A stretch of 64,000 nt of DNA, taken from contig OZ241837.1 in NCBI GenBank assembly GCA_965202615.1, positions 2,370,894 to 2,434,893 of the forward strand, in the 5' to 3' direction. The stretch's first letter is position 1, and every line of letters starts with the position of its first letter. This stretch comes from Arenicellales bacterium. GTDB lineage: Bacteria; Pseudomonadota; Gammaproteobacteria; Arenicellales; JAJDZL01. Below the pieces are notes generated by a model, which was not told the origin of the DNA, searched no databases, and saw only the letters and a list, made by a program, of their open reading frames with translations. Shown here piece by piece: positions 867 to 29,441 of the stretch. A program made the translations under genes and the position numbers.

Positions 867-3640
867 ATGTGCCCATGCCATCCTTCTCGGAATTTTACCG
901 GGCGGTCAATGACCGCGATCCATTTCCGTGGCAAATACGACTCGCCGATTGTGTCGCTAGGACGGAACAGTGGCCAAAAGAAATTGGAGTGCCGACCGGG
1001 CTTGGTAAAACCGTATGTTTGGAAATTGCAGTCTGGTGGCTTGCTTCTCAGGCGAATCGTGCGCCGGCTGAAAGAACTGCTCCAACTCGAATCTGGTGGG
1101 TGGTCAACCGTCGATTGCTGGTAGACTCTACTACGGAACAAGCGGAGAAACTCGCCGATTTGCTCAATGGATGTAGTTTGGCAGGGATCACGGCTCATAA
1201 TCAACTCATCCTTGCCCAGGTGGCTAACCGACTGCGCTCTCTCTGCGCTGATCCGGAAATGCTGCCCCTGGAAGTCATTTCACTGCGTGGCGGAATCTCC
1301 TCGCGAACTCCTCTCGATCCGTCGCAACCTGCAGTGATTCTGTGCACACTCCCAATGTATGGTTCACGGCTTTTGTTTCGAGGCTACGGGTCTAGACTCC
1401 GTCCCGTGGATGCTGCAATGGCTGGAACCGACAGTTTAGTGCTGCTTGACGAGGCTCACCTCGTGCTGCATTTAAATTCACTTATTGATGCCTTAGCCGA
1501 TTGTATGCCCCATTCTCATTTGCCCCTTAACGGTCAGCGTTCGACGGTAACGCTGGTTGAGATGACTGCCACAGGTAACCCCGACACGAAGATGCGGTTC
1601 GACCTGGACGACGCTGACTACAAGAACAGGGAAATCCGAAAGCGTTTAGATGCGGTAAAGCTTTTGGAGCTGCGACACGTCAAATCAGAGGACCCCGCCC
1701 GACATCTGTCCGATGCAACTCTCGATCTAATGCGCCGAGCAAGCGCACCAAGTACATTTTTGGTTTTCGCCAATACACCAAAAAATGCCAGAGCTGTTTT
1801 CGATCTGCTCTCGAAGGCAACAGCAAACATGGACCCCGAGGTGAATCTCCTTCTTCTGACCGGCCTCACAAGGGAGCGAGAAGCAAACCGTATACGAGCA
1901 CAAATCCTCGACCCTGAACATGGAATGGCCGCGGCGCGACCCAACCAAGACAGGAATCGGCAACTGGTTGTAATTGCCACGCAGACACTGGAAGTCGGAG
2001 CGGACATTGATGCCGAATACCTTGTTACCGAAGCCTGTAGTGTCCGCGCACTCACACAACGCCTAGGAAGGCTGAACAGACTTGGAAAGTACAGCCACAC
2101 ACGCGCCATATATGTTCACCTGCCGCCGCCGAAGTCGCATTCGGGCACCGGAAATGAGGAGAAGTACTGGCCTGTATACGGCAATGAGCCGGCCGTGGTG
2201 CTTGAACGACTTGAGAATGCCAGGCAAAATTCTGACAAAACCATCAATCTTTCCCCGAGGTTGGTGGCTGGAATTCTCGGACCACCAAGGGAAGATTCTG
2301 GACGTGCTCCCGAGGTCCTCCCGGGCATACTGTGGGAGTGGATCAAGACCACCACGCCCCCCGAGGGAGAGGCACCAGTAGAATCGTATTTCAATGGAAT
2401 TGCAAGCCCTCGGTACACCATCTCAGCGATCTGGCGAACATATGTACCGCAGTTGAATGAACGATTATGGCCACGGCCTACCGACCGTGAAGCGGTCGAT
2501 ATTTCTATCAGGGAGTTTCAGAAAGCACTGGGCGATGATGTCATTTGTCGGCTCGCTGGTGACGGGGTGACGACAGAAGAAGTTCCGGTGGCCGAACTTC
2601 GTTCTGGCGACAGGGTCGTGTTACCCACCGACCGCGGGCTGCTTGACCAGTTTGGGTGGAATATTGCCTCGACCGACCCAGTTGTGGACATGTCCCTTGC
2701 TCAAAACGGTCTTCCTCTGGACTCAAAGGCGATCATAAGGCTTTGCGGTATCAACCTCGCCGAATCTGTCCGAAAAGCGCTCGGAAACAGCACAGATGAA
2801 TCGGACGAGATAGATGATATCGAACGGGAACAGGCAGCCCATGATGTCGTCGAGGCGATACAGGACGCGGAACCACCGGATGGATGGGACCCGGTGGAGT
2901 GGTACGAATTCACAAGTTCACTGGAGCCTCGAATTGTGCAAGTGCGAAGGGAAGTGGCGAGACTGGAAGTTAGCAACCCGAAACGCGAAATACGAATCGA
3001 GGAATTCGACGAAATGTCACTTGGTGATTTGGCTACGTTGGACGGCCATGGGAAAGCAGTCGGTGTTCGAGCAAAGGCAGTGGCCGAACGTATTGGTCTA
3101 CCTGCCAACCTAGTCGAAGTGATCGAGCTCGCGGGTAGGTTGCATGATATCGGCAAGGCTGACCGGCGTTTCCAGTTGTGGCTCGATCCCAAATGCGAGG
3201 GTGGATCGTTAATGGCGAAGTCGAACACTCCGCGCCATCAGTGGAATGCAATGCGAGTATCAGCCGGATGGCCAAGAGGTGGCCGCCATGAAGATTTATC
3301 GGCCCGACTGGTTCGTGCGTGGCTGAATGAAAAACCCCATTGGGGTGAGAGTATTGATCGAGACCTGCTGGTCCACCTCGTCATCAGCCATCATGGGAAG
3401 GGTAGACCCCTAGTACCACCAGTGGAGGATGGTACGCAGGAAACCATACAACGTGTGGTTTCAGGCACCTGTGTTGAGGTCTCAGCCGATCTCGCTGAAG
3501 TCGACTGGAACCAGCCCACAAGGTTTCGGCGACTCAATGACCACTTCGGTCCGTGGGGGCTGGCGCTTATGGAGGCAATTGTCAGGCGGTCTGACCACGC
3601 TGTTTCGGCCGAGGGTGTCAAAGACCAAAGTGTACCTTGA
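863..3640 (+). CDS. cas3: Type I-G Cas3 helicase with C-terminal HD nuclease domain
   Basis: PFPWQ, PTGLGKT (Walker A), DEAH, ATQTLEVGAD and QRLGRLNR motifs. C-terminal HD elements LHDIGKAD, SHHG and RSDH. Start placed at ATG 863. Confidence 0.93.
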   Translation: MNVPMPSFSEFYRAVNDRDPFPWQIRLADCVARTEQWPKEIGVPTGLGKTVCLEIAVWWLASQANRAPAERTAPTRIWWVVNRRLLVDSTTEQAEKLADLLNGCSLAGITAHNQLILAQVANRLRSLCADPEMLPLEVISLRGGISSRTPLDPSQPAVILCTLPMYGSRLLFRGYGSRLRPVDAAMAGTDSLVLLDEAHLVLHLNSLIDALADCMPHSHLPLNGQRSTVTLVEMTATGNPDTKMRFDLDDADYKNREIRKRLDAVKLLELRHVKSEDPARHLSDATLDLMRRASAPSTFLVFANTPKNARAVFDLLSKATANMDPEVNLLLLTGLTREREANRIRAQILDPEHGMAAARPNQDRNRQLVVIATQTLEVGADIDAEYLVTEACSVRALTQRLGRLNRLGKYSHTRAIYVHLPPPKSHSGTGNEEKYWPVYGNEPAVVLERLENARQNSDKTINLSPRLVAGILGPPREDSGRAPEVLPGILWEWIKTTTPPEGEAPVESYFNGIASPRYTISAIWRTYVPQLNERLWPRPTDREAVDISIREFQKALGDDVICRLAGDGVTTEEVPVAELRSGDRVVLPTDRGLLDQFGWNIASTDPVVDMSLAQNGLPLDSKAIIRLCGINLAESVRKALGNSTDESDEIDDIEREQAAHDVVEAIQDAEPPDGWDPVEWYEFTSSLEPRIVQVRREVARLEVSNPKREIRIEEFDEMSLGDLATLDGHGKAVGVRAKAVAERIGLPANLVEVIELAGRLHDIGKADRRFQLWLDPKCEGGSLMAKSNTPRHQWNAMRVSAGWPRGGRHEDLSARLVRAWLNEKPHWGESIDRDLLVHLVISHHGKGRPLVPPVEDGTQETIQRVVSGTCVEVSADLAEVDWNQPTRFRRLNDHFGPWGLALMEAIVRRSDHAVSAEGVKDQSVP

Positions 3641-4536
3641 TGGAAAAATATATTTGTAAAGGGGTGCCGGCTTGGTGGGTCAACGGATGGCTCGCCGCAG
3701 TCGGGGCCACAGTTCTCGATTCCCGTCTCCGTCTTCACTGGACAGAGAGCGATAGTCTAGCGGTTCTATCTGCAGACGACTGCGACCCTGTTGATGTTCT
3801 CGTCGAATCCTGGCCTAGTTATGAGCTGCTGTCCGACCTGCCAATTTCAGTTGACTGGAGGAATACAGCAGTACTTAAACGGAAAGTCAACTTAGACTCA
3901 TTTACAGCACGGGCTCGGGCAGCAAGAAGGCACCCGCAAATTTGGACCCTGTCTTCTACAATGACTGATTTGTGTGTCGATGGGAATGGTGAGGTCGCAC
4001 ATGCGCCTTTCGATCCTCCTGGTCCTGGCACTATTAAGTGGTTGCACTATAGGTTGTTGAAAGTTCACCGGAATGTCTCCGAACCATCTGCGGAACGGAT
4101 AAAGGCTTCTTTGGCAGGTGAGGCACCGAGGGTTCAGGATAATGGACTCGGTTTCGACCAGGCGAGAATTGGGTCGCAGGCGGATAAAACCAATCCAAGG
4201 ATAGACCCTGTAGTTGAAGTGTTGGCGTTTTTCGGACTCGCTCTCCTGCCCATGCGCGGTCTTGGTATTGACGGTATTCAAAACGTCCGATTTAACGATG
4301 CACGTCAAAGGGGATGGAGAAGTTCACCGGAAGACAGGAAAGCCAATTATTTTTATTGGCCTGCTTGGGGAGAACCATTAGATTCCAATGGTATTGATGC
4401 GCTACTGGATCTTTGGAATCCCACCAAAGTCAGTGAATGGAAGACCTTAGGCATTAGAACCGGTTGGAAAAGTGCCGCATTCGAGACTGGCCGCTCAAGT
4501 GATCGGACACGTGCCTACGGAGCTGAGCGATTGTGA
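3637..4536 (+). CDS. Putative type I-G large subunit (Csb3/Cas8g-like)
   Basis: Lies between cas3 and cas4 with overlapping start/stop codons. NGWLAAVG, PVVEVLAFFGLALLP and FYWPAW segments resemble Cas8u/Csb3. Confidence 0.7.
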   Translation: MMEKYICKGVPAWWVNGWLAAVGATVLDSRLRLHWTESDSLAVLSADDCDPVDVLVESWPSYELLSDLPISVDWRNTAVLKRKVNLDSFTARARAARRHPQIWTLSSTMTDLCVDGNGEVAHAPFDPPGPGTIKWLHYRLLKVHRNVSEPSAERIKASLAGEAPRVQDNGLGFDQARIGSQADKTNPRIDPVVEVLAFFGLALLPMRGLGIDGIQNVRFNDARQRGWRSSPEDRKANYFYWPAWGEPLDSNGIDALLDLWNPTKVSEWKTLGIRTGWKSAAFETGRSSDRTRAYGAERL

Positions 4537-6152
4537 ACATCGAGCCTGTTGTTCCAATTTCCGCCATTGAGCATTTTGCCTACTGCCCGAGGCAATGTGC
4601 GCTGATTTATTGTGACGGCATCTGGTTTGACAACAAGTATACAGTCAAGGGAACACGGGCTCATCGCCGCGTCGATAGCGAATCGCATCGCCGGGAACGG
4701 GGGCGCACGGTGCTTCGCGGTATACCACTCTGGTCGGAATTGTTGGGACTGTCCGGGCGTGCCGATGTAATCGAAGTCGATGATGACGGGGTGCGACCTG
4801 TTGAGTACAAGTCAGGTGTGCGGCATGGCGATTCGGCAGACTTGCAGTTATGCGCCCAGGCTCTTTGTCTAGAAGAGATGCTCGCGATTGAGATTCCAAA
4901 AGGATTCGTATGGTACAGCGGACCAAGGCGCCGCTTGTGTGTTGAATTTACTGCAAGTCTTCGTAATGAAGTATGCAGGATCGTCGAAACTATCCGCAAA
5001 CAACTATTGACAGGGATGCTGCCCGATGCAGTGGACGACGAACGCTGTAATCACTGTCAACTGTTGCATCATTGCGTCCCCCACCTTTCAAAGCACCTCG
5101 GAAAGTACACCAATATCTGGATGACGTGGTTTTCGGATGCGATATTTAAATACAGTCTACGCCTTAACCACCAAGCCCGGGTGAAAACACGGACCGGTTC
5201 CCTGCTAGTATCATCACCTGAAGGTAGCCAGCGCATCCCGCTTGAAGCTGTTGACGCTCTAGTTCTGATGGGTGGCGCTCAGGTCACAACGCAAGCACTG
5301 GATGCCTGTGTGCGTCGAGGCGTACGCGTGTCCGCACTAACCAAAGGCGGTTCCGTGCGGTTCACCGTCAACGGAACAACGGGAGGAAACGTACATTTAC
5401 GCATTGCATTGTGTCAAACTTCCATGGACACAGGACGGTCATTGTCGCTGGCGAAGACCATCATTGCCGCGAAGTTGCAGAACAGCGGAATTGTTGTTGG
5501 GCGTTGGTCGCGGGATAATCAAAATTTAGCAACCAAAGAACGGTTGGCGACTCGAAGTGAACAAATTCGAGCGCGGATTCCTCGACTTGCCAATGCTGAA
5601 ACGGGTGATCATGTCCGTGGTATTGAGGGCGACGTCGCAAGAATTTACTTTCGCGCGGTAAATGAAGTGCTATCATCCTGTCCGCTTGAATTTTCCAGAA
5701 GAACCAGAAGGCCGCCTCAAGATCCAGTCAACGCCATGCTTGGTTTCTGTTATGGATTGCTCGTGACCGAATGCATCGGTGCCTTGGAAAGTGTGGGGCT
5801 TGACTACCAGATGGGGTTCTTCCATCGACCCCGCTCAGGCCGACCTTCTTTGGCACTCGACCTCGCTGAAGAATTTCGGGCTCTGACTGACCGGTTTGTA
5901 GTATCTTTAGTGCGTCGGCAGCAACTGAATCCGGACGACTTCGAACACACGCCGGGCGGAGGTGTCTACCTGAGTGAAAATGGACGCACGCGTCTATTGA
6001 CAGTTTGGGAAGAGCACAAGAACACTGAAGTTCAGCATCGACTACTTGGCAAACAGGTAGGCCGTTGGGCACTTCCATCAGTTCAGGCTACATTGCTTGC
6101 AAGATTTCTACGTGAGGATCTCCCTGATTATCCTCCTTTCGTACTGCCTTGA
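4533..6152 (+). CDS. cas4/cas1: Cas4-Cas1 single ORF (fusion possibly created by two frameshifts, see findings)
   Basis: Cas4 part: YCPRQ, PVEYK, QLCAQALCLEEM, CxxCxxxxxC. Cas1 part: RGIEGDVAR, RRPPQDPVNAML, LALDLAEEFR. Confidence 0.9.
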   Translation: MNIEPVVPISAIEHFAYCPRQCALIYCDGIWFDNKYTVKGTRAHRRVDSESHRRERGRTVLRGIPLWSELLGLSGRADVIEVDDDGVRPVEYKSGVRHGDSADLQLCAQALCLEEMLAIEIPKGFVWYSGPRRRLCVEFTASLRNEVCRIVETIRKQLLTGMLPDAVDDERCNHCQLLHHCVPHLSKHLGKYTNIWMTWFSDAIFKYSLRLNHQARVKTRTGSLLVSSPEGSQRIPLEAVDALVLMGGAQVTTQALDACVRRGVRVSALTKGGSVRFTVNGTTGGNVHLRIALCQTSMDTGRSLSLAKTIIAAKLQNSGIVVGRWSRDNQNLATKERLATRSEQIRARIPRLANAETGDHVRGIEGDVARIYFRAVNEVLSSCPLEFSRRTRRPPQDPVNAMLGFCYGLLVTECIGALESVGLDYQMGFFHRPRSGRPSLALDLAEEFRALTDRFVVSLVRRQQLNPDDFEHTPGGGVYLSENGRTRLLTVWEEHKNTEVQHRLLGKQVGRWALPSVQATLLARFLREDLPDYPPFVLP

Positions 6153-6155
6153 GAA

Positions 6156-6446
6156 ATGGATATTCTCCTCACTTATGATATCGCCGATACTGACGGAGCT
6201 GGCGCTTCACGGCTCAAACGAAATTCAGAAATTTGCGAAAAGTACGGTCAGCGCGTTCAGTTTTCAGTTTTTCAGTGCAGGCTTTCTCCGACACGATTAA
6301 CTCGATTGATCGGCGAAGTCGAAGACGTGATTGATCGCAAGCAGGACAAAGTTAGCATTTATCGATTCTCCAACGATATCGAAAAGGCAGCGATTCATCT
6401 TGGCTGCCAGCAGGAAAGGAAATTAGGCCAGCCGTGGATAGTCTGA
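6156..6446 (+). CDS. cas2: CRISPR-associated endonuclease Cas2
   Basis: LLTYDIAD and YGQRVQFSVFQC motifs, 96 aa, directly after cas1. Confidence 0.95.
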   Translation: MDILLTYDIADTDGAGASRLKRNSEICEKYGQRVQFSVFQCRLSPTRLTRLIGEVEDVIDRKQDKVSIYRFSNDIEKAAIHLGCQQERKLGQPWIV

Positions 6447-6616
6447 AGTCCTGCGAACCTCTGGTGATTCACCAAATAAATGGTAAAATGAATTTCGAAT
6501 TTATGGAATCTCGTCCTCAGATCCGTTATTCGCGGGATCATTTTGTGTTTTGTAATCAAATTTCCAACTTAAACCTGCTTGAGAGTTTAAGTTTCTTGTC
6601 AAAATGATAATTAGGG
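6447..6616 (+). promoter_or_regulatory. CRISPR leader
   Basis: AT-rich non-coding stretch between cas2 and the first, most conserved repeat. Confidence 0.7.
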
Positions 6617-7089
6617 GTGTTGCCGGGGTTTGTGCTCCGGCCTTTGTTGAGCGTGCGGAACATCCTCGTCACTCGCCAATGTCAGCGCCGTGTTGCCGGG
6701 GTTTGTGCTCCGGCCTTTGTTGAGCGACCCAGGGGCTGGCGCGGCCGAACAGCGTGACATGCGTGTTGCCGGGGTTTGTGCTCCGGCCTTTGTTGAGCGA
6801 TCGGGTTTTCGGCTGGCGCAACCAGTCTGAAAATGTGTTGCCGGGGTTTGTACTCCGGCCTTTGTTGAGCGCGGACGATGACCGGACCACTGCCGACGCA
6901 GGCCATGGTGTTGCCGGGGTTTGTACTCCGGCCTTTGTTGAGCGTGCACGAACGGAATGGTTGTTGGCGACATCAGCCGTGTGTTGCCGGGGTATGTACT
7001 CCGGCCTTTGTTGAGTGCCGGTATGTTTTCGCAAATCGCCAAGAACCGGTACATGTTGCTGGGTTTTGTATTCCGGCCTTTGATAAGTG
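6617..7089 (+). CRISPR. CRISPR array: 7 repeats of 37 bp (GTGTTGCCGGGGTTTGTGCTCCGGCCTTTGTTGAGCG) and 6 spacers of 35-36 bp
   Basis: Repeats start at 6617, 6690, 6763, 6835, 6908, 6981 and 7053. Internal GCCGG..CCGGC hairpin. Repeats degenerate toward the distal end. Confidence 0.97.
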
Positions 7090-8073
7090 ACTACGACAGA
7101 CCAGTTGACTGGACCGGATCAGATTGGTGTTGTAGGTTTTTGATCTGGCTGTATAGCGATAATCAAGATCATTCTAAATTTACCTTGATTATTCTGTAAT
7201 TGGACTATTCAGTAATCGTGTCGTAAGTGTCTATCTTGCATGGCTTCAAGTAAAAGAACACGAGAAATTCTTGCATCGTAATTTTATTCTGAAAATTTCA
7301 TGAATTATTTTGCGATACGGAGAAATACTTGAGTTTACAAGACAGTTATTTTTTAGCACGTGCCAGAGTCGGTTCCGCTATAGTTCGCTCGCGGAGGACA
7401 TTGATGACTTTGTGTTGTTTCTCAAATCAGGTCAATCAAAAGCCTGCTGGAATTCTTACAATAATTCGCTGATGCTGCTGCAAAAAAACGGTAATACCAC
7501 GACTTTGACAAATTCAGGTGCGTCGCTTCCACGCGGTGCATGCTTTGTCTGTGTTTTTAAAGCAAAAAAACGCCGCCGTACTGACCGCTCTGCGTCTCAG
7601 CCAACTTGGCAATCTTTGCAAGTCGGTTGGCAAACGAACCGAAATCCTTAACGACCTAGCATACCGCACAACGGGTAGCTTATCGCTACTGCAACCGCAA
7701 TCGTATACTTGTAAATGACCAGTCCTGTATAAGCTACCGTATTGGTACGATTGGTTCGTTGCGTTGGTTAGATTCTACTATGAATTTTCATGCCTGTTTC
7801 TCCATGTCGGACAACAAAAACTGAGCAAATTAAACTTTTGCTCACCCCGATTATCGCGGCGTACAGGTTAAAACACCGAGTCTAAAATACATCAACGGTT
7901 TTGTATTCCGATTCGCTTGCTAACTGTCTAGAAGTTGGTTCAGGCGACTGCTGGGTATATGCTTGATTTAATTCGCCTTGCACATGTCTAAAGAAATAGA
8001 ATCTCTTCGAAAAAATAAATAAAATTAGACGGTGCTAATTTCTTTTCCGCTCAACTATTTCATTTAGTAAATC

Positions 8074-21218: not shown

Positions 21219-21888
21219 GCAAGCGGGCAGGATCTAGTTGTAGGTTGCGATGGTGTCGGATTCTCACGGGAGGAGCACCAAGACCCGTTAGCCGATGCCG
21301 CCGCACAGGTGATGTCGTTCCGGTTTGCCAATTGCCCTAATCCGAAAATAGAGCTCACGAAAAAGGTAAAAGCCTTGTATAATCAATCAATTATAACAAC
21401 AATGAATATCACCCAATGGGTGACAAATCTCAAGATATATACAAGGCTATGAACATTGTAAACTACAAAACCTCCGACAGCAGTCACACCAGCAATTCGA
21501 ATTATTGAATTAAGGGTTCACCGTCAACTCCAAGTGAGTAATTTTTCAGTTCGTCAGTTAGATTTTCTTAAGCGTTATTTGACCCCTAAGGCGGCGAAAA
21601 AGCCTTGGCGATGGGACGCGCCTCCGGGTAAGCGATTTGTATCAGAAGATCGCACCAGTTATCAAAGTACCACCATTCGGTCAACACGTCCATGGTGTAG
21701 AAGAATCGTTTTCTGCGCGAGCATCTCTGACGGGCTTTATACCAAAGTGCGCACAATTGATCACAGGCCCCATGGAAAGCGAATGCGATCAGATTGAGCG
21801 TCAGCAATGTGTTCGCCAATCCGTTGTCACCGTGTCCATAGCAGTGTTCGATGTTATAGCCCTGGTTCTTGAGCAGGTTAAATCCCTC

Positions 21889-21986
21889 TAATGTTGACAG
21901 AAAAATAATGTTGCAAGTTTGATCCAACTCCCCGCTGCAACTGCGGATCCGTCAAAAACTCGCAACATAATATTTTGCATTGGACT
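21889..21986. repeat. RIT left inverted repeat (98 bp)
   Basis: Exact reverse complement of 25223-25320. Contains TAATGTTG twice and CAACATAA. Confidence 0.95.
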
Positions 21987-22032
21987 GTGTCATCATGGTT
22001 GTTTTTCTGATATTCACTATGGAGAATCAACC

Positions 22033-23286
22033 ATGTTTGAAGACCTTTTCACACGTGTAGCCACGATTTCCGAGTATCGGTCACTACCGATGCTTGATGA
22101 ACGTTTGCGCTACCTTTCTCATTGCAAAGATCATGGCGCGCCAAAATACACGTTGCGCGCCATCGCGTTTAATCAACGATATCTGATTGATGTTCTTGGC
22201 TGGTCGGATGAAACAACGCAGATTGATTACTCCCAGGTGGAAGTCGCTGCGCGAGAATGGGCCCGACCCAGATCACATCGTCAATACCGTCACGCGGCAC
22301 CCAGAAAGATCAGGGACTTCATGAATCGCTCGCTCAGATGGCTGCGGTTCATGGACAGATTGACAGAGCTGCCGACACCTGCTCACCGCTACCAGGAACA
22401 GATTGGAGAATTTGAAGCGTGGATGGAACACGAATGCGGATACTCTCAACAAACCATCGCATTTACCGTTCGCGTCACAAAGCACCTTGTTGATGCGCTT
22501 GAAAAACGCGGCATTGCACTGGATTCGGCAAACATCGAACAGATCGAGCAGATTTTAGCGAATGATCAGTCTGTCAGTCAGCGCAGTGCCGTAACCACTC
22601 TTGGATATGTGTCCCGCCTACGTGTTTTTTTTCGATTTGCGGAACAAAAAGGATGGTGTAAAGCAGGAATTTCAAAGGGCTTGGCAGCTCCTCGACATTA
22701 TCCCCGGGAGACGGTGCCCAAAGGGCTTGACCGCAAAGAAATCAATGATCTGCTTGCCGCCACTGAAGGTGACAACCCATCGAAAGTGCGCGACCGGGCG
22801 ATTCTAATGATTCTCATCACATATGGGTTGCGTGCCGGTGAGCTCAGCGCTTTGAAACTCGATGATATTGACTGGCATAACGACACATTACGAGTGTTCT
22901 GTCCCAAAACCGGAGCCACCCAGAATTTTCCGTTATCCGCCAGTGTCGGAGAGTCGATTGTTCAATATGTCTGTCACGTTCGATTTCCTTCTCCCCATCG
23001 AAATGTCTTTCTAACCCTGCACTCACCGTGTCGTCCACTTGACGGAAAGATTCTCAGCGCGATCGTGGCTCGCAGAATGAAAGAAGCTGGAATTTCTGGC
23101 AGACGCAACGGCACCCACGCACTGCGACATACAACCGCCCAACATCTGCTTGATAACGGTTTTTCGATGAAAGCGGTCGGTGATTATCTCGGTCATCGCA
23201 GCATCAACACTACATCAATCTATGCGAAGGTTGACCTGAAAACGCTTCGTGAAGTGGTCGAAACGAACTTGGAGGTGCTGCAGTGA
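22033..23286 (+). CDS. Tyrosine recombinase RitA
   Basis: YGLRAGE, HALRH and LGHRSINTTSIY motifs. RBS GGAG precedes ATG 22033. Confidence 0.92.
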   Translation: MFEDLFTRVATISEYRSLPMLDERLRYLSHCKDHGAPKYTLRAIAFNQRYLIDVLGWSDETTQIDYSQVEVAAREWARPRSHRQYRHAAPRKIRDFMNRSLRWLRFMDRLTELPTPAHRYQEQIGEFEAWMEHECGYSQQTIAFTVRVTKHLVDALEKRGIALDSANIEQIEQILANDQSVSQRSAVTTLGYVSRLRVFFRFAEQKGWCKAGISKGLAAPRHYPRETVPKGLDRKEINDLLAATEGDNPSKVRDRAILMILITYGLRAGELSALKLDDIDWHNDTLRVFCPKTGATQNFPLSASVGESIVQYVCHVRFPSPHRNVFLTLHSPCRPLDGKILSAIVARRMKEAGISGRRNGTHALRHTTAQHLLDNGFSMKAVGDYLGHRSINTTSIYAKVDLKTLREVVETNLEVLQ

Positions 23287-24233
23287 AACTTCGAGAGGCC
23301 ATTGATCTTTATGTCGCATGGCGACAGCTCAACGGGGCGTTATTCCAGAACAGTGCGCTTATGCTCTATCGATTCTGCCGCACATTAGACGTCGGCATTG
23401 AATGTGATGCTGTCACCCGGCAACAGGTTTGCAGATTTCTGAAGGGCAACGGTAAACTGACCCGTTCCCGTGGTTATCGCTACGTTACTTTAGCCGGCTT
23501 TTTCGACTACGCCGTTATTCGCAGTTATGTCTCCAGTTCACCCATGCCGGTGCGCGGTGAAGAACCCCGGTCTCCGGATTCTCTGCCGCCGTATGTCTAT
23601 ACCCGCGATGAAGTGGAAGTGCTGTTTCGCGCGGCAGAGACTTTTCACAGACGCGAATGTCAACTTGACAGCCTGACCTTCAGCACTCTGCTACGGTTGC
23701 TTTACGGCACTGGCCTGCGGGTCGGTGAAGCAATCAGCCTGACACTTGCAGATGTGGCGCTTGATGCCGCTGTCGTGACGGTGCGCAATGCGAAATTTTT
23801 CAAAAGCCGGCTCGTTCCGATCGACAGCAGCCTGGCCGAAAAATTGGACCGCTATCGGAAGCAGCGCACACTCCGACCACTACCCAACGGTGAAGAGTCC
23901 ACTTTTCTCGCCTACAGTGACGGTAGTCCTTTGATCTACAACACTGTATACGGTGCTTTTTGCAAACTGCGAAATCAAATCGGACTTAACGAAACGAATG
24001 ACAATGGACGCGCACCCTGTCTTCATGGCTTGAGGCACGCGTTCGCGGTGCATCGATTGACCGCATGGCATCGGGAAGGAGCCGATATTCAACGACTGTT
24101 GCCAGCACTGTCAACCTGCCTTGGCCACGCTGATTTGGAAGGAACTCGGGTCTATCTGACCATGACTCCTGAGCTTTTACAAACCGCATCTGAAATTTTC
24201 GACCGTTATATCAATGGAGAACAAAATGGCTGA
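23283..24233 (+). CDS. Tyrosine recombinase RitB
   Basis: TGLRVGE, KFFKSR, HGLRHAFAVHRL and LGHADLEGTRVY motifs. Confidence 0.92.
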   Translation: MKLREAIDLYVAWRQLNGALFQNSALMLYRFCRTLDVGIECDAVTRQQVCRFLKGNGKLTRSRGYRYVTLAGFFDYAVIRSYVSSSPMPVRGEEPRSPDSLPPYVYTRDEVEVLFRAAETFHRRECQLDSLTFSTLLRLLYGTGLRVGEAISLTLADVALDAAVVTVRNAKFFKSRLVPIDSSLAEKLDRYRKQRTLRPLPNGEESTFLAYSDGSPLIYNTVYGAFCKLRNQIGLNETNDNGRAPCLHGLRHAFAVHRLTAWHREGADIQRLLPALSTCLGHADLEGTRVYLTMTPELLQTASEIFDRYINGEQNG

Positions 24234-25224
24234 TATACAAAAACTGTCTGCGTGGCTGACGCGGTTTTTCACCGACTTCGTCAGCTCCGAGAGAAATTAC
24301 TCGATCAATACCAAACGCAGTTACCGCGACACTTTCATCATACTTTTACCCTACGCAAAGACAAAGGTCCGCAAATCACCAGAGAATCTGTCGGTTACGG
24401 ACCTGAGCCCCAAACTCGTGCGTTCGTTTCTCGATCATGTTGAGGCTGAACGCGGCTGTTCGGTGGAGACTCGCAACATACGGCTTGCCGCGATTCGCTC
24501 ATTTGCTCGTTTCGTCAGTTCCCGAGAACCGGCTTATAGCGATTGGTGCGCTTCGCTTTGTGCCATCGGAACCAAAAAAACGATTCGACAAAAACCGCTG
24601 GACTGGTTCTCGAAAGAGGAAATGGAGGCCATCTTTCAGGCTGTTGACACCAGCAAGCCTCAAGGTAAAATCGAACATGCGCTTTTGGTATTTCTTTTCA
24701 ATACCGGTGCACGCGTCTCTGAAGCTATTGAGGTGAAAGTAAGTGATTTGCAGCTGCATCAAAACAGCAGCCGACATGCGATTGTTACGTTGCATGGCAA
24801 AGGAGGCAGAGTGCGGCAGTGCCCAATTTGGCCTAAAACTGCCGAATTGCTGGCCGGACTGATTGAAGACAGAGTCGAGACCGACCCTGTCTTTGTAAGT
24901 CAGAGACGCCAGCCTTATTCTCGATATGGCGTGTATCGTCTGGTACAACGCTGCAATGCGAACGTACCATCGCTTTCAGGTCGTCGGATTACACCTCATT
25001 CCATCCGGCATTCATGCGCCTGCAACCTGCTCAAATCCGGTGTTGATTTAAATACGATCCGAGCCTGGTTGGGTCACGTCAATTTGAATACAACCAACAT
25101 CTACGCACAAGTTGACATGGAATTGAAACTGCGGGCAATGCAGCATTGCGAAGCTGTGACGACACAACAGCCAAAGTCATGGAAGCAGGACGATCGAGTG
25201 ATGGACTTCCTTCATTCTCTGTAG
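24226..25224 (+). CDS. Tyrosine recombinase RitC
   Basis: SYRDTF, NTGARVSE, HSIRH and LGHVNLNTTNIY motifs. Confidence 0.92.
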   Translation: MADIQKLSAWLTRFFTDFVSSERNYSINTKRSYRDTFIILLPYAKTKVRKSPENLSVTDLSPKLVRSFLDHVEAERGCSVETRNIRLAAIRSFARFVSSREPAYSDWCASLCAIGTKKTIRQKPLDWFSKEEMEAIFQAVDTSKPQGKIEHALLVFLFNTGARVSEAIEVKVSDLQLHQNSSRHAIVTLHGKGGRVRQCPIWPKTAELLAGLIEDRVETDPVFVSQRRQPYSRYGVYRLVQRCNANVPSLSGRRITPHSIRHSCACNLLKSGVDLNTIRAWLGHVNLNTTNIYAQVDMELKLRAMQHCEAVTTQQPKSWKQDDRVMDFLHSL

Positions 25225-25351
25225 TCCAATGCAAAATATTATGTTGCGAGTTTTTGACGGATCCGCAGTTGCAGCGGGGAGTTGGATCAAACTTGCAACA
25301 TTATTTTTCTGTCAACATTAGAGGGATAATGTGCGACGCACATTATCCCTC
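25223..25351. repeat. RIT right inverted repeat plus terminal palindrome GAGGGA-TAATGTGCG-A-CGCACATTA-TCCCTC
   Basis: Read directly: IR at 25223-25320 and palindrome at 25321-25351. Confidence 0.95.
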
Positions 25352-26420
25352 ATTTTCACAGCGCCACCTTGCGCGTCCGCAAGCGACGATTTCAGCGACC
25401 GTGTCAGCGGTGGGTTTTATCGAAGTGATAAAGCGGAAGACTGAGCCTTTGGATTTGCTGCCGACGCTTTTAATGCACAGTTCCGCATAGTAGACTTCAA
25501 GCGCGTCTTTTTGTGCGGTCAGCGGCAGTTTGTAATTCGTCCAGCGGTAATGAAATTCCTTGTTCGGTGATTTGCGCCCCGGTGTTCTTTTAAGGACGGT
25601 TCGGTTCGGCCAGTCAATGCCGTTGAGGTAATCGAACAGCGTTTTGTGGTCGTTGACTTTGACCCGGAAGATAAACTGCGCACCGGACTCAATGACCTTC
25701 TCACACATCGGCTGTTTGGCATACAGATCATCGCCCAGATAAAGTGGATTGAGATCTGAGTAGCGTTTTGCATTTTCATCGAACCACCGATAAGCGGCCT
25801 TGGTTTCACAATCCTGTTTTTTATCGCCATCCTGGGGGGAGATGAACTCGGGCCGAAGCGGCACCGCAAAGGGGTGGTCGGGACCGACCAGCACTGCCGC
25901 CAGCACACTGTGGTAGTATTCGGTGTATTCATCCTCAGTGTCTTTGTTTTTCACTCGCCACTGACACTGATTACAGTGAATCTTGCGAGAGTTATGGAAC
26001 TCGGTTCCGTCCAGTGCGATCAGTGTGTGATTTCCGAGCACGGTGAAAGGCCGAAGTTTTTGAAATTGTTTGAGTTTGTCAAGTGCGATGTCAAAGCCAT
26101 CATAGATTTCGGTGCACTCAATGCGATCCAATTGTTTTCGAATGTGAGTGTCGGTGGGCAGTTGCTCAACGCCAAACAGTGAGCCGCAGGCGTTTTTGCC
26201 ATTGACCCGGTGAAAGGCGCGCTGGTGATCCAGAAACGACGGCGACTGAACGAAGAATGCTGAAAATGCAGACATCAGAATGTCGCGGAAACGGTATTGC
26301 TTGTTCTGGCCGTTGCGGGGGTCGCCGACCGTGGCGAACAGCTCTCCAAGCGAACCGATCAGCGCCTCGGCAAGCAGTGTTTGACCCCGCTTAATGATCC
26401 CCATTGCAGGTCCTTTGTAC

Positions 26421-27143
26421 TTATGCATCGTTGCATTCCTGCGCTTCAGCCGCCATGATCTCTGCCAGCACTGCGACTCTTTCCTTGTGCGGCATTGCGC
26501 GGTAACGCCGTCCCCAGTTTTGCGCCTTGCGCCGGATGCGCTGGCGGTCGGTGAAATTGCGACCCGCATAGCGACACCAGTGCACCCGGTCGGGCGTGAA
26601 GTTGAACCACACCCTTTCGGTCACCACCCCGGCCTGGTTCATCACCTGCAGCGCCAGGGTGTTCCAACCCGACAGCAGGTCGTCATAAAGCTCACAGCCA
26701 TAACCGGAGATCATCACCTGGCAAGGCAGCGACTTCAAGATCTCAAGCAACTCGACATGGTCCTGGTCCTCGTAGTCGTAACGATAGCGATAGCGCTGCG
26801 GGTCTTTGCGGGTGCTTCGCACATAAGGCGGGTCGGCGTACGCCAGTTCTGTGCCGTCCCAGTCAAAGCTTTTCAGATAGTCATGACAGCATCCGTGAAC
26901 CAGCTCGACCGGATAGTCACAGCTGAAGTTGGTAATGGCACGGGCATCCGCATCAATGCCGATGTTTCGAAGCGCCGGCGGCTTCCTCTGCATGATCTTG
27001 CCATTGCCCAGGTGCAACTCCAGATAGGTTGCGTGCGGCGGCATCAAAGCGATCAGAGGCTGACACAATCCACTGGTGGCCTTGGAGCCGAAAAACAGGT
27101 TGCCCATGAAAAAAGTTCCGTCCCTGGTGTCGAATTGATGCAA
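26421..27143 (-). CDS. DNA adenine methyltransferase (Dam/D12-like) inside the IS
   Basis: GSK..., YLELHLGNG (motif I variant) and YADPPY (motif IV). Start may be 27107. Confidence 0.85.
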   Translation of the reverse strand: MHQFDTRDGTFFMGNLFFGSKATSGLCQPLIALMPPHATYLELHLGNGKIMQRKPPALRNIGIDADARAITNFSCDYPVELVHGCCHDYLKSFDWDGTELAYADPPYVRSTRKDPQRYRYRYDYEDQDHVELLEILKSLPCQVMISGYGCELYDDLLSGWNTLALQVMNQAGVVTERVWFNFTPDRVHWCRYAGRNFTDRQRIRRKAQNWGRRYRAMPHKERVAVLAEIMAAEAQECNDA

Positions 27144-29441
27144 ATATTAGCACCGTGAGTCTATATTGTCAAGTGCCGAGGGCAAAAAAACGGACAGAGA
27201 CAGGTGGGAAATGCCTCGAAACTGGCATCGCGAACGAAATTCAGCGATTTTTAACCGTCAATTGGGCGGCTTGAGTGGAAAAAGTGAATTTGCGGCTGGC
27301 TTGGTATTTTCCTGAAGACGAAAATAGGATCATTAATACAATGACTTGCAAATCGTCTGCCGTCGCACGCCTACAAAATCAAGCCATAATTCGAATTGCT
27401 GCAGTCACACCTTGACCTCCCGCACCGGCCTGGTGGTGCTCGGTGAGCTTCTCAAGCGCTTGAAGCTGAACGATCTGATCGAGCGGCTGATGCCTAAAGC
27501 CCAGCGCAACCGTGCTTATCGGTCCAGTACCGTTTTCAACACTTTCATGCTGATGCTGCATGAAGGAGCCAAGTGTCTCGACGATGTGCGTCTGTTACAG
27601 CAAGAATCCGCACTGATGGGGATGTTAGGCATCAAGCAGTTGCCCAGCGCCCACACCCTGGGCAACTGGTTGCGTGCTGTGGGTTCAAATCAAGGCGCCA
27701 TGCGGGCGCTGGACGAAGTCAACCGACAGTTGCTCAAAGCCGCGTTGCATGGTCGCAAGAAGGTGGTGCTTGATATTGACGCCACCGTCATTGAGGCACA
27801 CAAAAAGGATGCCAAGTACACCTACAAGAAACACCCGGGGTACGTTCCGATGGTGGGACATATAGCCGAGACCGATCAAGTGGTGGCGACTGAGTTCCGG
27901 GCGGGCAATGTGCCGCCGAACAAAGCGAATCTGGAATTCATCCAGCGCTGTGAGCAGGCGTTGCCGGAGGGGGTGTCGGTGAGCCGGGTGCGAATTGATG
28001 CGGCGGGCTACCAGGCTGCCCTGATCAATTATTGTGAGGGCAATGACATAGGCTTTGCGATTCGGGCCAAGATGGATAAGTCGCTCAAGGAGTCGATGAC
28101 TGCAATCAAGGACTCGCAGTGGCAGGCGCTGGTTCGATCAGACGGTTCGGTGAGTGAGACCGAGGAGGTGGCTCGCACCTTGCATACGATGGTCGAAACC
28201 GAGCTGGCATTCACAGTGGTGGTTCAGCGTCAACTGATCGGTGAGTCGGAAAAAGACCCGCAACAGGACTTGTTGCCCGGATTGCTGGGCGATGTGGATG
28301 AAGAAAGTGCCAGTTGTGGCGTGTACATGTACCGGGCGATTGCCACCAATCTGGACGGGGATAAATTGACTGATCATGAGGTGGTGCAGTTTTACAACCA
28401 GCGCGCTGACGCATCCGAAAATCGCATAAAAGAGCTGCGCAGCGACTTTGCCGGCGCCCATCTGCCGTGTAGCGACTTTGATGCCAATGGGGCTTATTTC
28501 AAGCTGTCTGCGATAGCCTATAACCTGTGGGCACTGATGCGTATGATCCTGCCTGTGAAATGGGAGCGATGCCGCGCTACAACGGTGCGCTATCGTTTGT
28601 ATGCGAGTGCCGGGCAGATCGTTCGTCATGCGCGTCAATGGACGCTAAAACTCAATGCCAGTCGAAGAGGTCAGATCGAGGAGGCCATCTGGTCGATCCG
28701 CAACTGTGTTCTGACATGAGACAGCCGCCTTCGGCGGCCTCTGTTCAATCCAGTCGACTCAATTCCTGGCGTTCGGAAGGACTCGTCACGTCTTGAACAC
28801 CGTTGCCTGCCTGTCATTACCTGGTTAATCCGCTGCGATCAGTTTCAGGGGTGCCGAATCACGCTGATTTCTCCTGCACAGGTGAAACTCAGACGAAATC
28901 AACCTGGCAAATCGTTGCCGATCACGGTAGCGACCAATTGATGGCCTCCTAATTTCGGATTACGGAATTGAGACAGCAAGAATCTGGCTGGCCTCATATG
29001 GTATTGAGTTCTATGCTCCAAGTTCAATTGAACTGTCGCTCTGACAAATGAATGGAGAGTTAGATTACTGACTCCGAATCAATACTCAAAATCAGATTCA
29101 TCAAATAAATATGCCGGATTTGCCGACATGATTAAACACCTTGGAAAAAATCGACAAGTGTTCTGCCAGAGGCAAATTACCGAAGCCAGGAGTTCCCGAA
29201 ATTTGAGTAATTTCGGTTGAATTTTTTGTATTCCAGATGCTACATTATGAATTAACATAGCCGTCACGCCTCTTAACAATGCGTAACTTGACGGCTTTTT
29301 TGTACTTCAAGACCTCTCGGCGCTTGAAAACTACACAAAACCTCCACTTCTATATCTTCTAATTTGACTTGATCGAACATCATCTATTCAGGTCGCTTCA
29401 ATAATGCAAATTTCCAACTTGTTCACAGCTAGGGAGGCACT

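Follow-up and report, generated by a model that had tools for sequence, protein, structure and literature searches.

The element and the gene that it interrupts

The stretch of DNA described here, called the window, comprises 64,000 nucleotides (nt) of contig OZ241837.1 of an Arenicellales bacterium (assembly GCA_965202615.1, positions 2,370,894 to 2,434,893 of the forward strand), and coordinates without a prefix refer to it. A mobile unit of 3463 bp at 21889-25351 is a recombinase-in-trio (RIT) element, inserted in the transposase gene of an insertion sequence (IS). The recombination sites of this element are probably laid out as two inverted core sites standing side by side, each with an exchangeable 6-mer at its centre.

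The interrupted gene codes for a DDE transposase on the minus strand, and BLAST of the flanks against the own genome places the limits of the IS, with the RIT included, at 21490-27401. Its N-terminal part (25346-27401) is read in an open reading frame (ORF; 25343-26569) that ends ...CENEG, with a stop codon that belongs to the element, and the C-terminal part (21490-21888) resumes the reading with EGFNLLKNQGYN. The 6-mer TCCCTC, which stands on both sides of the insertion, is the reverse complement of the transposase E-G codons, as had been noted in a preliminary description of the window.

Three overlapping ORFs on the plus strand match PF00589. The first and longest, ritA (22033-23286; E 2.8e-31), codes for 417 amino acids (aa) from the ATG at 22033, which is most likely the start of RitA; the longest possible ORF (455 aa) begins at the TTG at 21919, within the left inverted repeat. 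The second, ritB (23283-24233), codes for 316 aa and overlaps ritA by GTGA. The third, ritC (24214-25224), is XerD-like and has two possible ATG starts, at 24214 (336 aa, with a ritB overlap of 20 nt) and at 24226 (332 aa, with an overlap of 8 nt). RIT ORFs are described as overlapping by 4-8 bp (PMC3414803), and the GTGA and the 8 nt given by the later ritC start are short overlaps of this kind. The catalytic residues are kept in all three recombinases, as stated earlier, with the box-I arginine in GLRAGE, GLRVGE and GARVSE, followed by HxxRH (HALRH in RitA) and GH...Y. Among solved structures RitC is closest to XerD (1a0p, E 3.3e-19), the two being aligned through the catalytic motifs, and the best NCBIfam matches of RitA, RitB and RitC are XerC/XerD models, all below the cut-offs. 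Judged by these matches the Rit proteins are Xer-like, with about 125 additional N-terminal residues ahead of the Xer-like part in RitA.

The left end of the element follows directly on TCCCTC (21883-21888) and opens with TAATGTTGAC (21889-21898). The left and right inverted repeats (IRL, 21889-21986; IRR, 25223-25320) are 98 nt long and 100% complementary to each other; a repeat search gives arms of 105 nt (21882-21986 and 25223-25327), which include the core and one further base. Each inverted repeat (IR) contains two direct half-sites 17 nt apart, TAATGTTGAC and TAATGTTGCAAG (21906-21917 in IRL), and one inverted half-site, GCAACATAATA (21962-21972), towards its inner end. The ritC end has the order half-site, GAGGGA, half-site, A, half-site, TCCCTC. 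IRR closes with GTCAACATTA at 25320 and is followed by the internal 6-mer GAGGGA (25321-25326), TAATGTGCG (25327-25335), a central A (25336), CGCACATTA (25337-25345) and TCCCTC (25346-25351). The internal 6-mer is the core of a complete site, GTCAACATTA-GAGGGA-TAATGTGCG, and the inverted half-sites TAATGTGCG and CGCACATTA around the central A form a terminal palindrome (25327-25345). With the 6-mers included, the repeat search finds 15-nt arms (25321-25335 and 25337-25351) with a 1-nt spacer. As single-stranded DNA the palindrome folds with -15.1 kcal/mol, against -2.8 +/- 1.65 for 200 shuffles, of which 0 were equally good. It contributes two further half-sites to a total of eight, and a form with joined ends would be a perfect palindrome with 113-nt arms. 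The junction letters, the 98-bp identical IRs and the internal GAGGGA given in the preliminary description are correct to the base.

Copies, boundaries and the empty site

The own genome is assembled as one contig of 4.25 Mb and contains three 100% identical copies of the element. A unit of about 3.5 kb with IRs, a palindrome at one end and multiple identical copies is expected of a RIT; the size, the IRs, the palindrome, the three copies and the three PF00589 ORFs all fit the identity proposed earlier. Copies 1 and 2 occupy the same position in two copies of the IS, with TCCCTC on either side. An unrelated ORF harbours copy 3, which has GATTTC on its left while its right end still reads ...CATTATCCCTC; this right end, ...CGCACATTATCCCTC, is followed by GTAATC. 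Deletion of exactly 3463 nt at copy 3 fuses two ORFs in frame, by arithmetic on the coordinates. Because copy 3 retains both the palindrome and the right-hand TCCCTC despite its left flank GATTTC, both belong to the element and move with it into another target. By this comparison the left TCCCTC in the window is the host's matching core, and the right TCCCTC is carried by the element, where it also matches the host core. The earlier view of TCCCTC as host sequence duplicated on both sides is too simple.

The empty IS site is found in metagenome contigs from two studies (X1 and X2), which join 21881 to 25345 and skip 3463 nt. The joint contains 7 ambiguous letters, a single ATCCCTC that can be assigned to either side, and in X1 the depth is 44.9 at the joint, 28 in the RIT body and 72 in the right flank. 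Since the empty site bears one TCCCTC core, the host core equals the element core at the focal site. X1 and X2 are sponge metagenomes in which a variant RIT body (47 and 54 differences across 3296 nt, compared with window 21600-25600) occurs alongside the uninterrupted IS site, so that occupied and empty sites, or related strains, coexist in the samples. No intact IS copy is present in the own genome, where the N-terminal part occurs twice and is broken at one and the same position each time. When the gene hit by copy 3 was searched at the DNA level in 31 genomes of the genus, the sole match was to a short repeat at the beginning of the query, and no empty site for copy 3 was obtained. The surroundings of the IS itself (21335-21490 and 27401-28037) match a paralogous stretch at G000:C1:4190282-4191061 of the own genome; these two matches overlap by 11 nt (4190907-4190917), and the stretch looks like an empty IS site with an 11-bp target duplication.

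The 6-mers of related insertions

RitB-like genes (E <= 1e-30) occur in 15 of 61 related genomes, and a RitB-like gene is present in 13 of 30 other genomes of the same genus. The RitB search also gave recombinase-gene trios on 81 plasmid records, and the six that were fetched and scored share gene order and ends. The regions fetched were 20 genus regions, five diverged RITs of the own genome, contig loci, 12 named plasmid loci and two regions of genome G009. Of the 20 genus regions, 14 have an ungapped IR of at least 25 nt, as do all five RITs of the own genome; such an IR is absent from the genus regions L051, L053, L057, L060, L062 and L067, and likewise from L013, L014, L017 and L020, and L015, L018 and L019 were left out as too short. 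The 31 scored insertions come from the same genus, two metagenome-assembled genome (MAG)/Caballeronia loci and six named plasmids (Sagittula, Rhodobacter, Cupriavidus, Pseudomonas, Salmonella and E. coli). For each insertion the palindrome-distal flank, the reverse complement of the internal 6-mer and the palindrome-proximal flank were compared, with a chance match of 1/4096 per comparison; four of the triplets (L100, L101, L111 and L112) were read by hand from the sequence.

All 31 insertions have two half-site-like arms around a dyad at one end, with a loop of 0-6 nt. The 6-mer starts about 10 nt from the dyad centre and is followed by the IR half-site, and the order half-site, 6 nt, half-site is the core geometry of the Xer/dif type, a resemblance read from the sequence. 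A comparison of internal and flanking 6-mers across relatives had been proposed in the preliminary description, and its outcome is positive, the internal 6-mer covarying with the adjacent flank. The internal 6-mer is complementary to the palindrome-adjacent flank in 22 of the 31 insertions, all three 6-mers are equal in 14, and two or more are equal in 28. The odd one is the distal flank in 8 insertions, the proximal flank in 3 and the internal 6-mer in 3, and all three differ in 3. A 32nd case, on the Aminobacter plasmid pAA02, was read by eye and has GACCGA three times. Because 23 different internal 6-mers occur among the 31 insertions, the 6-mer is no consensus recognised by a protein. The 17 insertions whose 6-mers are not all alike agree at all three sites in positions 5-6, beside the IR half-site, in 12 cases, and in positions 1-2 in 5 cases.

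Identical flanks, as at copies 1 and 2, are found in 17 of the 31 insertions (14 with all 6-mers alike and 3 with an odd internal 6-mer), and could also come from a target-site duplication by staggered cutting and repair as in DDE transposons, the internal copy being a coincidence or relic. However, the flanks are not always repeated and differ in 14 insertions, copy 3 included; the enzymes are tyrosine recombinases, and the internal copy pairs with the adjacent flank in the 22 insertions mentioned above. A duplication of this kind is very improbable.

Differences between near-identical copies are concentrated in the 6-mers. In genome G009, two IS::RIT composites on two replicons (L111 and L112) are 98.7% identical over 5486 nt, and 6 of their 70 mismatches fall inside the 12 nt of two 6-mers. 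A distance of 32 nt separates focal copy 2 from a second, unrelated RIT of the own genome (G000:C1:1410629-1414173; RitB 37% identical, half-sites of the ATGCCGAC type) in the IS gene that both interrupt. This second RIT is flanked by CCACCT on either side and contains TAACAT internally, and the IS copy of the window reads GGGCTA-TAACAT-CGAAC at the exactly matching place. The sister copy of this second RIT, near G000:C1:421973, stands in other surroundings; its internal 6-mer is CCACCT, and its three 6-mers differ slightly. Elsewhere the two IS copies are 99.9% alike, and they differ at 11 positions in about 45 nt at the insertion point of the second RIT (window about 21828-21868, compared with G000:C1:1414176-1414200 and the 32 nt between the RITs). 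The G009 RITs are inserted at the same G-Y codons of a homologous transposase as the second RIT, and the 6-mers that they carry, TAACCT and CAATCT, are synonymous codings of the same residues, which suggests that their cores were picked up from different alleles of the same target. A rule of two element cores and one target core per insertion was tried and rejected; it fits 25 of the 31 insertions and fails for L112 and the three all-different cases.

The side of the palindrome

Of the 31 palindromes, 16 are found at the ritC end of the element and 15 at the ritA end, with a constant orientation relative to the rit genes. In genome G005, the insertions L063 and L065 have paralogous flanks (97% over 1478 nt and 160 nt) and a body that is 99.97% identical and reversed relative to the flanks, while the imperfect palindrome ctatgtCctgcagAacatag keeps the same orientation to the rit genes in L063, L064 and L065. 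Two elements of genome G015 (L069 and L070) are 100% identical over 3435 nt and lie in different places with the palindrome on opposite sides, both with the loop TTTT in rit orientation. Moreover, homologous flanks border the plasmid elements of Salmonella (L100) and E. coli (L101), in opposite order in the two, and both elements have the loop AC. Because the palindrome can be at either end of identical or sister elements, both inverted sites appear to be in use. The pattern indicates one circular map opened at either of two inverted sites, and such permutations would be indirect evidence for an intermediate with joined ends.

The preliminary description had also allowed for inversion in place via the two inverted sites. 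Such an event between the left junction and the internal site should leave the loop reversed with respect to the genes, and no loop reversed in this way was found among the scored insertions. Inversion in place was at first the explanation of L063/L065 and of the CCACCT/TAACAT case, and was dropped since the asymmetric palindrome shows flips of the whole element. The internal 6-mer of L112 would create a stop codon in the target and is thus not target-derived; together with the asymmetric palindromes, this is why inversion in place was given up as a general explanation.

The palindrome could in principle serve ritC as a transcription terminator or another regulatory hairpin, as it is a stable hairpin directly past ritC, followed by ATTTT at copy 1, or it could be an assembly artefact. 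However, it lies upstream of ritA in the 15 insertions noted above, its arms are similar to the half-sites of the IRs, its outermost 6 nt vary together with the flank, and GTAATC comes next at copy 3. Contigs of two isolate-type runs from two studies (X14 and X15) reproduce it, with 25298-25351 and 25322-25600 recovered without a difference, and their loose ends match the flanks of the remaining element copies. Since these independent contigs reproduce the palindrome and the flanks of all copies, an artefact is excluded, as the preliminary description had required for its case, and the terminator and artefact explanations taken together are hardly credible.

A probable doubled core site

The preferred reading, which is held with fair confidence, is that of a RIT transposon whose ends form doubled, inverted core sites around an exchangeable 6-mer. 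If a denotes the inner arm of the palindrome and a' the outer one, joining of the ends, presumably in a circle, would turn a'-TCCCTC-IRL into a complete core site with the dif-type geometry of Xer sites. A second identical site, IRR-GAGGGA-a, would stand inverted at a distance of 1 nt (0-6 nt across the relatives). The structural part of the preliminary description, which placed two inverted sites with an identical core at the joined ends, is right for the sequence layout and generalises to the relatives. The 6-mers would be the crossover (overlap) regions, and the Rit proteins would presumably be distributed over the half-sites and cleave on either side of the 6-mer in double-stranded DNA.

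The joined form could integrate via either site, which would give the two circular permutations that are observed, one having the palindrome at the ritC end and the other at the ritA end. Matching of the overlap regions is a general rule for tyrosine recombinases. Integration would prefer a target 6-mer equal to the element core, giving the all-alike cases, and would tolerate mismatches. In a mismatched target, one flank would keep the target's 6-mer, and a later excision would pass the new 6-mer to the junction site and so give elements with two different cores, the internal-odd cases. The 6-mer would in this manner be a heritable and changeable address tag. The common agreement of positions 5-6 fits a first strand exchange that wants a couple of matching bases and a second that tolerates heterology. 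The layout is unusual in its double site, and the principle is ordinary overlap homology, not a separate programmable guide.

The preliminary description offered two options, an internal 6-mer that dictates target choice or one that is rewritten to match each new target. In a strict form of the first, integration would be DNA-programmed, the internal 6-mer would be a dedicated guide and editing it alone would redirect the element. Agreement of the three 6-mers in 14 insertions despite 23 cores, and a focal target that natively bears TCCCTC, speak in its favour, and one part of the proposal stands in that the core usually matches the target and can apparently be rewritten. The match is not obligatory, however. 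The identical copy 3 sits at GATTTC, the distal flank does not match in 8 insertions, the internal 6-mer is unlike both flanks in 3, and where the three 6-mers are not all alike (17 insertions), regular agreement is limited to the 2 nt beside the IR half-site (12 of 17). Moreover, the recombining site would be the junction site and not the internal one. A dedicated guide is improbable, and the term DNA-programmed overstates what is special here, namely the doubled inverted site and the evidence of 6-mer exchange with targets.

Several observations weigh against the doubled-site reading. The three 6-mers are not all alike in 17 of the 31 insertions and the internal one is unpaired with its neighbour in 9, because of which strict homology is not the rule. 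The arms of the target are unlike half-sites (2/9 and 2/10 positions at the focal site, by eye), and related RITs recur at the same codon of homologous genes, which would imply a further targeting cue. The TAACAT/CCACCT case may be a native allelic difference, as 7 further IS mismatches lie in the 45-nt patch, and the two IS copies of the own genome may be duplicates of one IS::RIT composite and not independent insertions. The shorter side of the X1/X2 joint has 23 letters only, and sides below 30 can mislead. No joint of a circle, an inversion or an excision was found in the assembled contigs of X14 and X15, which are blind to rare forms. Many of the scored insertions are kin, and the figures for the 31 are therefore counts and not independent trials. 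Moreover, loci were dropped. Five of the 12 plasmid loci were left unscored, among them L095 and L099 without a convincing IR, L098 and L102 with long IRs whose outer ends are unlike half-sites, and L094, whose element was read by eye from the wider locus L116. L011, L091 and L068 were dropped before the count since they have no clear half-site palindrome, L068 having a different arrangement.

A candidate joint in X14, from 25128 to 25228, has a contig with 6 other letters; it was taken for a paralogous RIT and set aside. The same position of homologous flanks is also occupied by elements with different cores. An insertion in genome G030 (L054) and one in the own genome at about 1375.9-1379.2 kb share such a position with the cores GAAGTA and AAAATA, and L058 and L059 of genome G025 share one with the core TCGTCA and one CAGGCA flank. 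These pairs point to a targeting cue beyond the 6-mer.

Inverted repeats and a possible folded strand

The IRs of the element had been regarded as unusually long. Across the relatives their length ranges from 14 to 1139 nt. The lengths cluster near 30-38 nt and again at about 78-98 nt, where 17 of 34 elements fall, and for this reason the focal 98-nt IR is ordinary. The IR arms are 91-100% identical within one element and 56-76% identical between non-sister elements. IRs of 1139, 1135 and 1122 nt, each at 100%, occur in L092 (Sagittula sp. MA-2 p4), L093 (Rhodobacter xanthinilyticus pEJ01) and L116 (Aminobacter aminovorans pAA02).

The identity of the arms can also be seen as the trace of a folded single strand, in which the two sites would be the two strands of one site. 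IRL would pair with IRR, and a' with its core would pair with the complementary core' and a, so that the internal stretch splints the ends into a duplex core site. One strand exchange followed by replication would then complete integration, as in CTX attP(+) and integron attC, and any difference between the IR arms would be removed by repair within the long stem. The perfect 113-nt-arm palindrome of the joined form, the Xer-like Rit proteins, the 91-100% identity within elements against differences of 24-44% between non-sisters, and the three IRs of more than 1.1 kb that are 100% identical in three hosts are all in agreement with such folding. Furthermore, RIT DNA was found to be exonuclease-protected without a circle junction, and hairpin intermediates were proposed, according to Nielsen 2017 (PMC5737581); SE elements form single-stranded circles (PMC10214605).

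On the other hand, the RIT palindromes have loops of 0-6 nt and no bulged bases or asymmetry. In attC and CTX the reactive strand is marked by bulged bases or asymmetry. The near-equal permutations (16 and 15) and the unpaired internal and adjacent 6-mers in 9 insertions also disagree with a folded strand, and the sequence would look alike for a cruciform or an ordinary duplex. Missing circle junctions decide neither model, because a perfectly palindromic duplex junction also escapes short-read mapping. Movement of RITs via a folded single-stranded copy, with IRR-core'-a as a built-in splint that recopies the core and the IR arms in each round, is accordingly regarded as unlikely, albeit genuinely supported by the points above. 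If true, it would make RITs a bacterial DNA counterpart of the internal complementary region of DIRS elements. It would also account for IRs that stay almost perfect over lengths of up to 1.1 kb, for the lack of circle junctions and for a 6-nt address rewritten from targets and then inherited.

Other RITs and irregular relatives

The own genome contains five or more RIT lineages, with 8 RitB-like matches at E <= 1e-30, and the half-site sequence and core are particular to each lineage. Further RIT places lie at G000:C1 about 1375913-1379185, 2201249-2203265 and 2705606-2706505. The RITs of L092, L093 and L116 have an ORF with a toprim domain within each arm. The element of Aminobacter pAA02 is about 8.7 kb long and has potassium channel and SLC13 permease genes between ritC and the IR; because these genes lie inside, it is a RIT with cargo.

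L011 (a MAG of the Alphaproteobacteria) and L091 (a plasmid of Mesorhizobium sp. NZP2077) have IRs of 91-93 nt, including the core ACGGTA/TACCGT, and no terminal palindrome. L012, a related element with a palindrome, has a left flank that is reverse-complementary to the right flank of L011. L011 and L091 may be copies that can no longer move, or may have arisen by recombination with a distant site. In L114 (G005:C1:1538500-1548500), a 1687-nt perfect inverted repeat at 1269-8013 surrounds a RitB-like gene (32% identity), and its outer ends are unlike Rit half-sites.

Significance

RITs are widespread in bacteria and their mechanism has so far been uncharacterised. The doubled-site reading offers a site model that can be tested at the level of single bases, consisting of the element ends, a doubled inverted core, a swappable 6-nt tag that usually matches the target and a predicted joined-end junction. 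As this junction would be a perfect palindrome of more than 100 nt per arm, its structure is a possible reason why circle junctions were missed in mobilome data. Should the 6-nt core turn out to be what mainly addresses the element, a RIT would be a compact integration module, complete in itself, that could be retargeted by editing 6 nt at two places.

Comparison with known systems

RIT elements: RITs were reportedly described between 2009 and 2013, by Van Houdt in 2009 and 2012 and by Ricker in 2013. Known RITs resemble the focal element in the overlapping same-strand ritA-ritB-ritC genes, the size of about 3.4-3.5 kb, the identical genomic copies and the insertion in transposase genes. Their ends were described as an inverted repeat with an "overlapping palindromic sequence" (PMC3414803; PMC2864759), and in Van Houdt 2012 the inverted repeat of 28-9 bp and overlapping palindrome were judged unconvincing as binding sites (PMC3414803). 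Idola 2023 lists target specificity and movement of RITs as untested, with no transposition reproduced, and gives 34-bp IRs (PMC10214605). RitA, RitB and RitC were placed among the simple, Xer-related recombinases in Smyshlyaev 2021 (PMC8138268). The base-level ends, the palindrome as half of a doubled core site, the 6-mer covariation and the circular permutation go beyond these accounts. The doubled core site, the covariation and the permutations are not described in the available portions of the RIT literature surveyed, and Ricker 2013 (Plasmid 70:226) may hold part of them.

XerCD/dif and integrative mobile elements exploiting Xer (IMEX): The CTX phage uses a folded single strand that is built of two inverted sites. 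The dif site consists of two partly symmetric 11-bp half-sites and a 6-bp central region where exchange occurs (PMC5357621), a geometry that the RIT ends resemble. The central region of Xer/dif-type sites measures 6-8 bp, and IMEX such as the CTX and VGJ phages integrate at dif. Unlike IMEX, RITs own three recombinases, use many target sites rather than dif, and have extra half-sites in long IRs.

Tn916 and CTnDOT: These integrases tolerate heterology in the overlap ("coupling sequences"), and the first strand exchange of IntDOT needs short homology. In a similar manner, RIT insertions with mismatched 6-mers leave one flank with target sequence and one flank carried by the element. In contrast to RITs, Tn916 and CTnDOT have one integrase, arm-type sites and an excisionase, and neither an inverted second site nor long IRs.

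DIRS1: DIRS1-type retrotransposons have inverted terminal repeats and an internal complementary region, whose sequence is reverse-complementary to the ends when these are joined. The IRR-core'-a stretch of RITs is likewise the reverse complement of a'-core-IRL, a likeness of design for which no homology is claimed. Unlike RITs, DIRS1 elements are eukaryotic retroelements with a reverse transcriptase and one recombinase.

SE, GInt and Tn554: These elements, like RITs, have several tyrosine recombinases together and carry onward a 6-bp unit from one donor flank to the new site (PMC10214605). They differ in their gene sets, IntA/Tfp/IntB/Srap or TnpA/B/C, and the available descriptions report no long IRs or terminal palindrome for them. 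In RITs, unlike in these elements, the carried 6-mer has a complementary internal copy.

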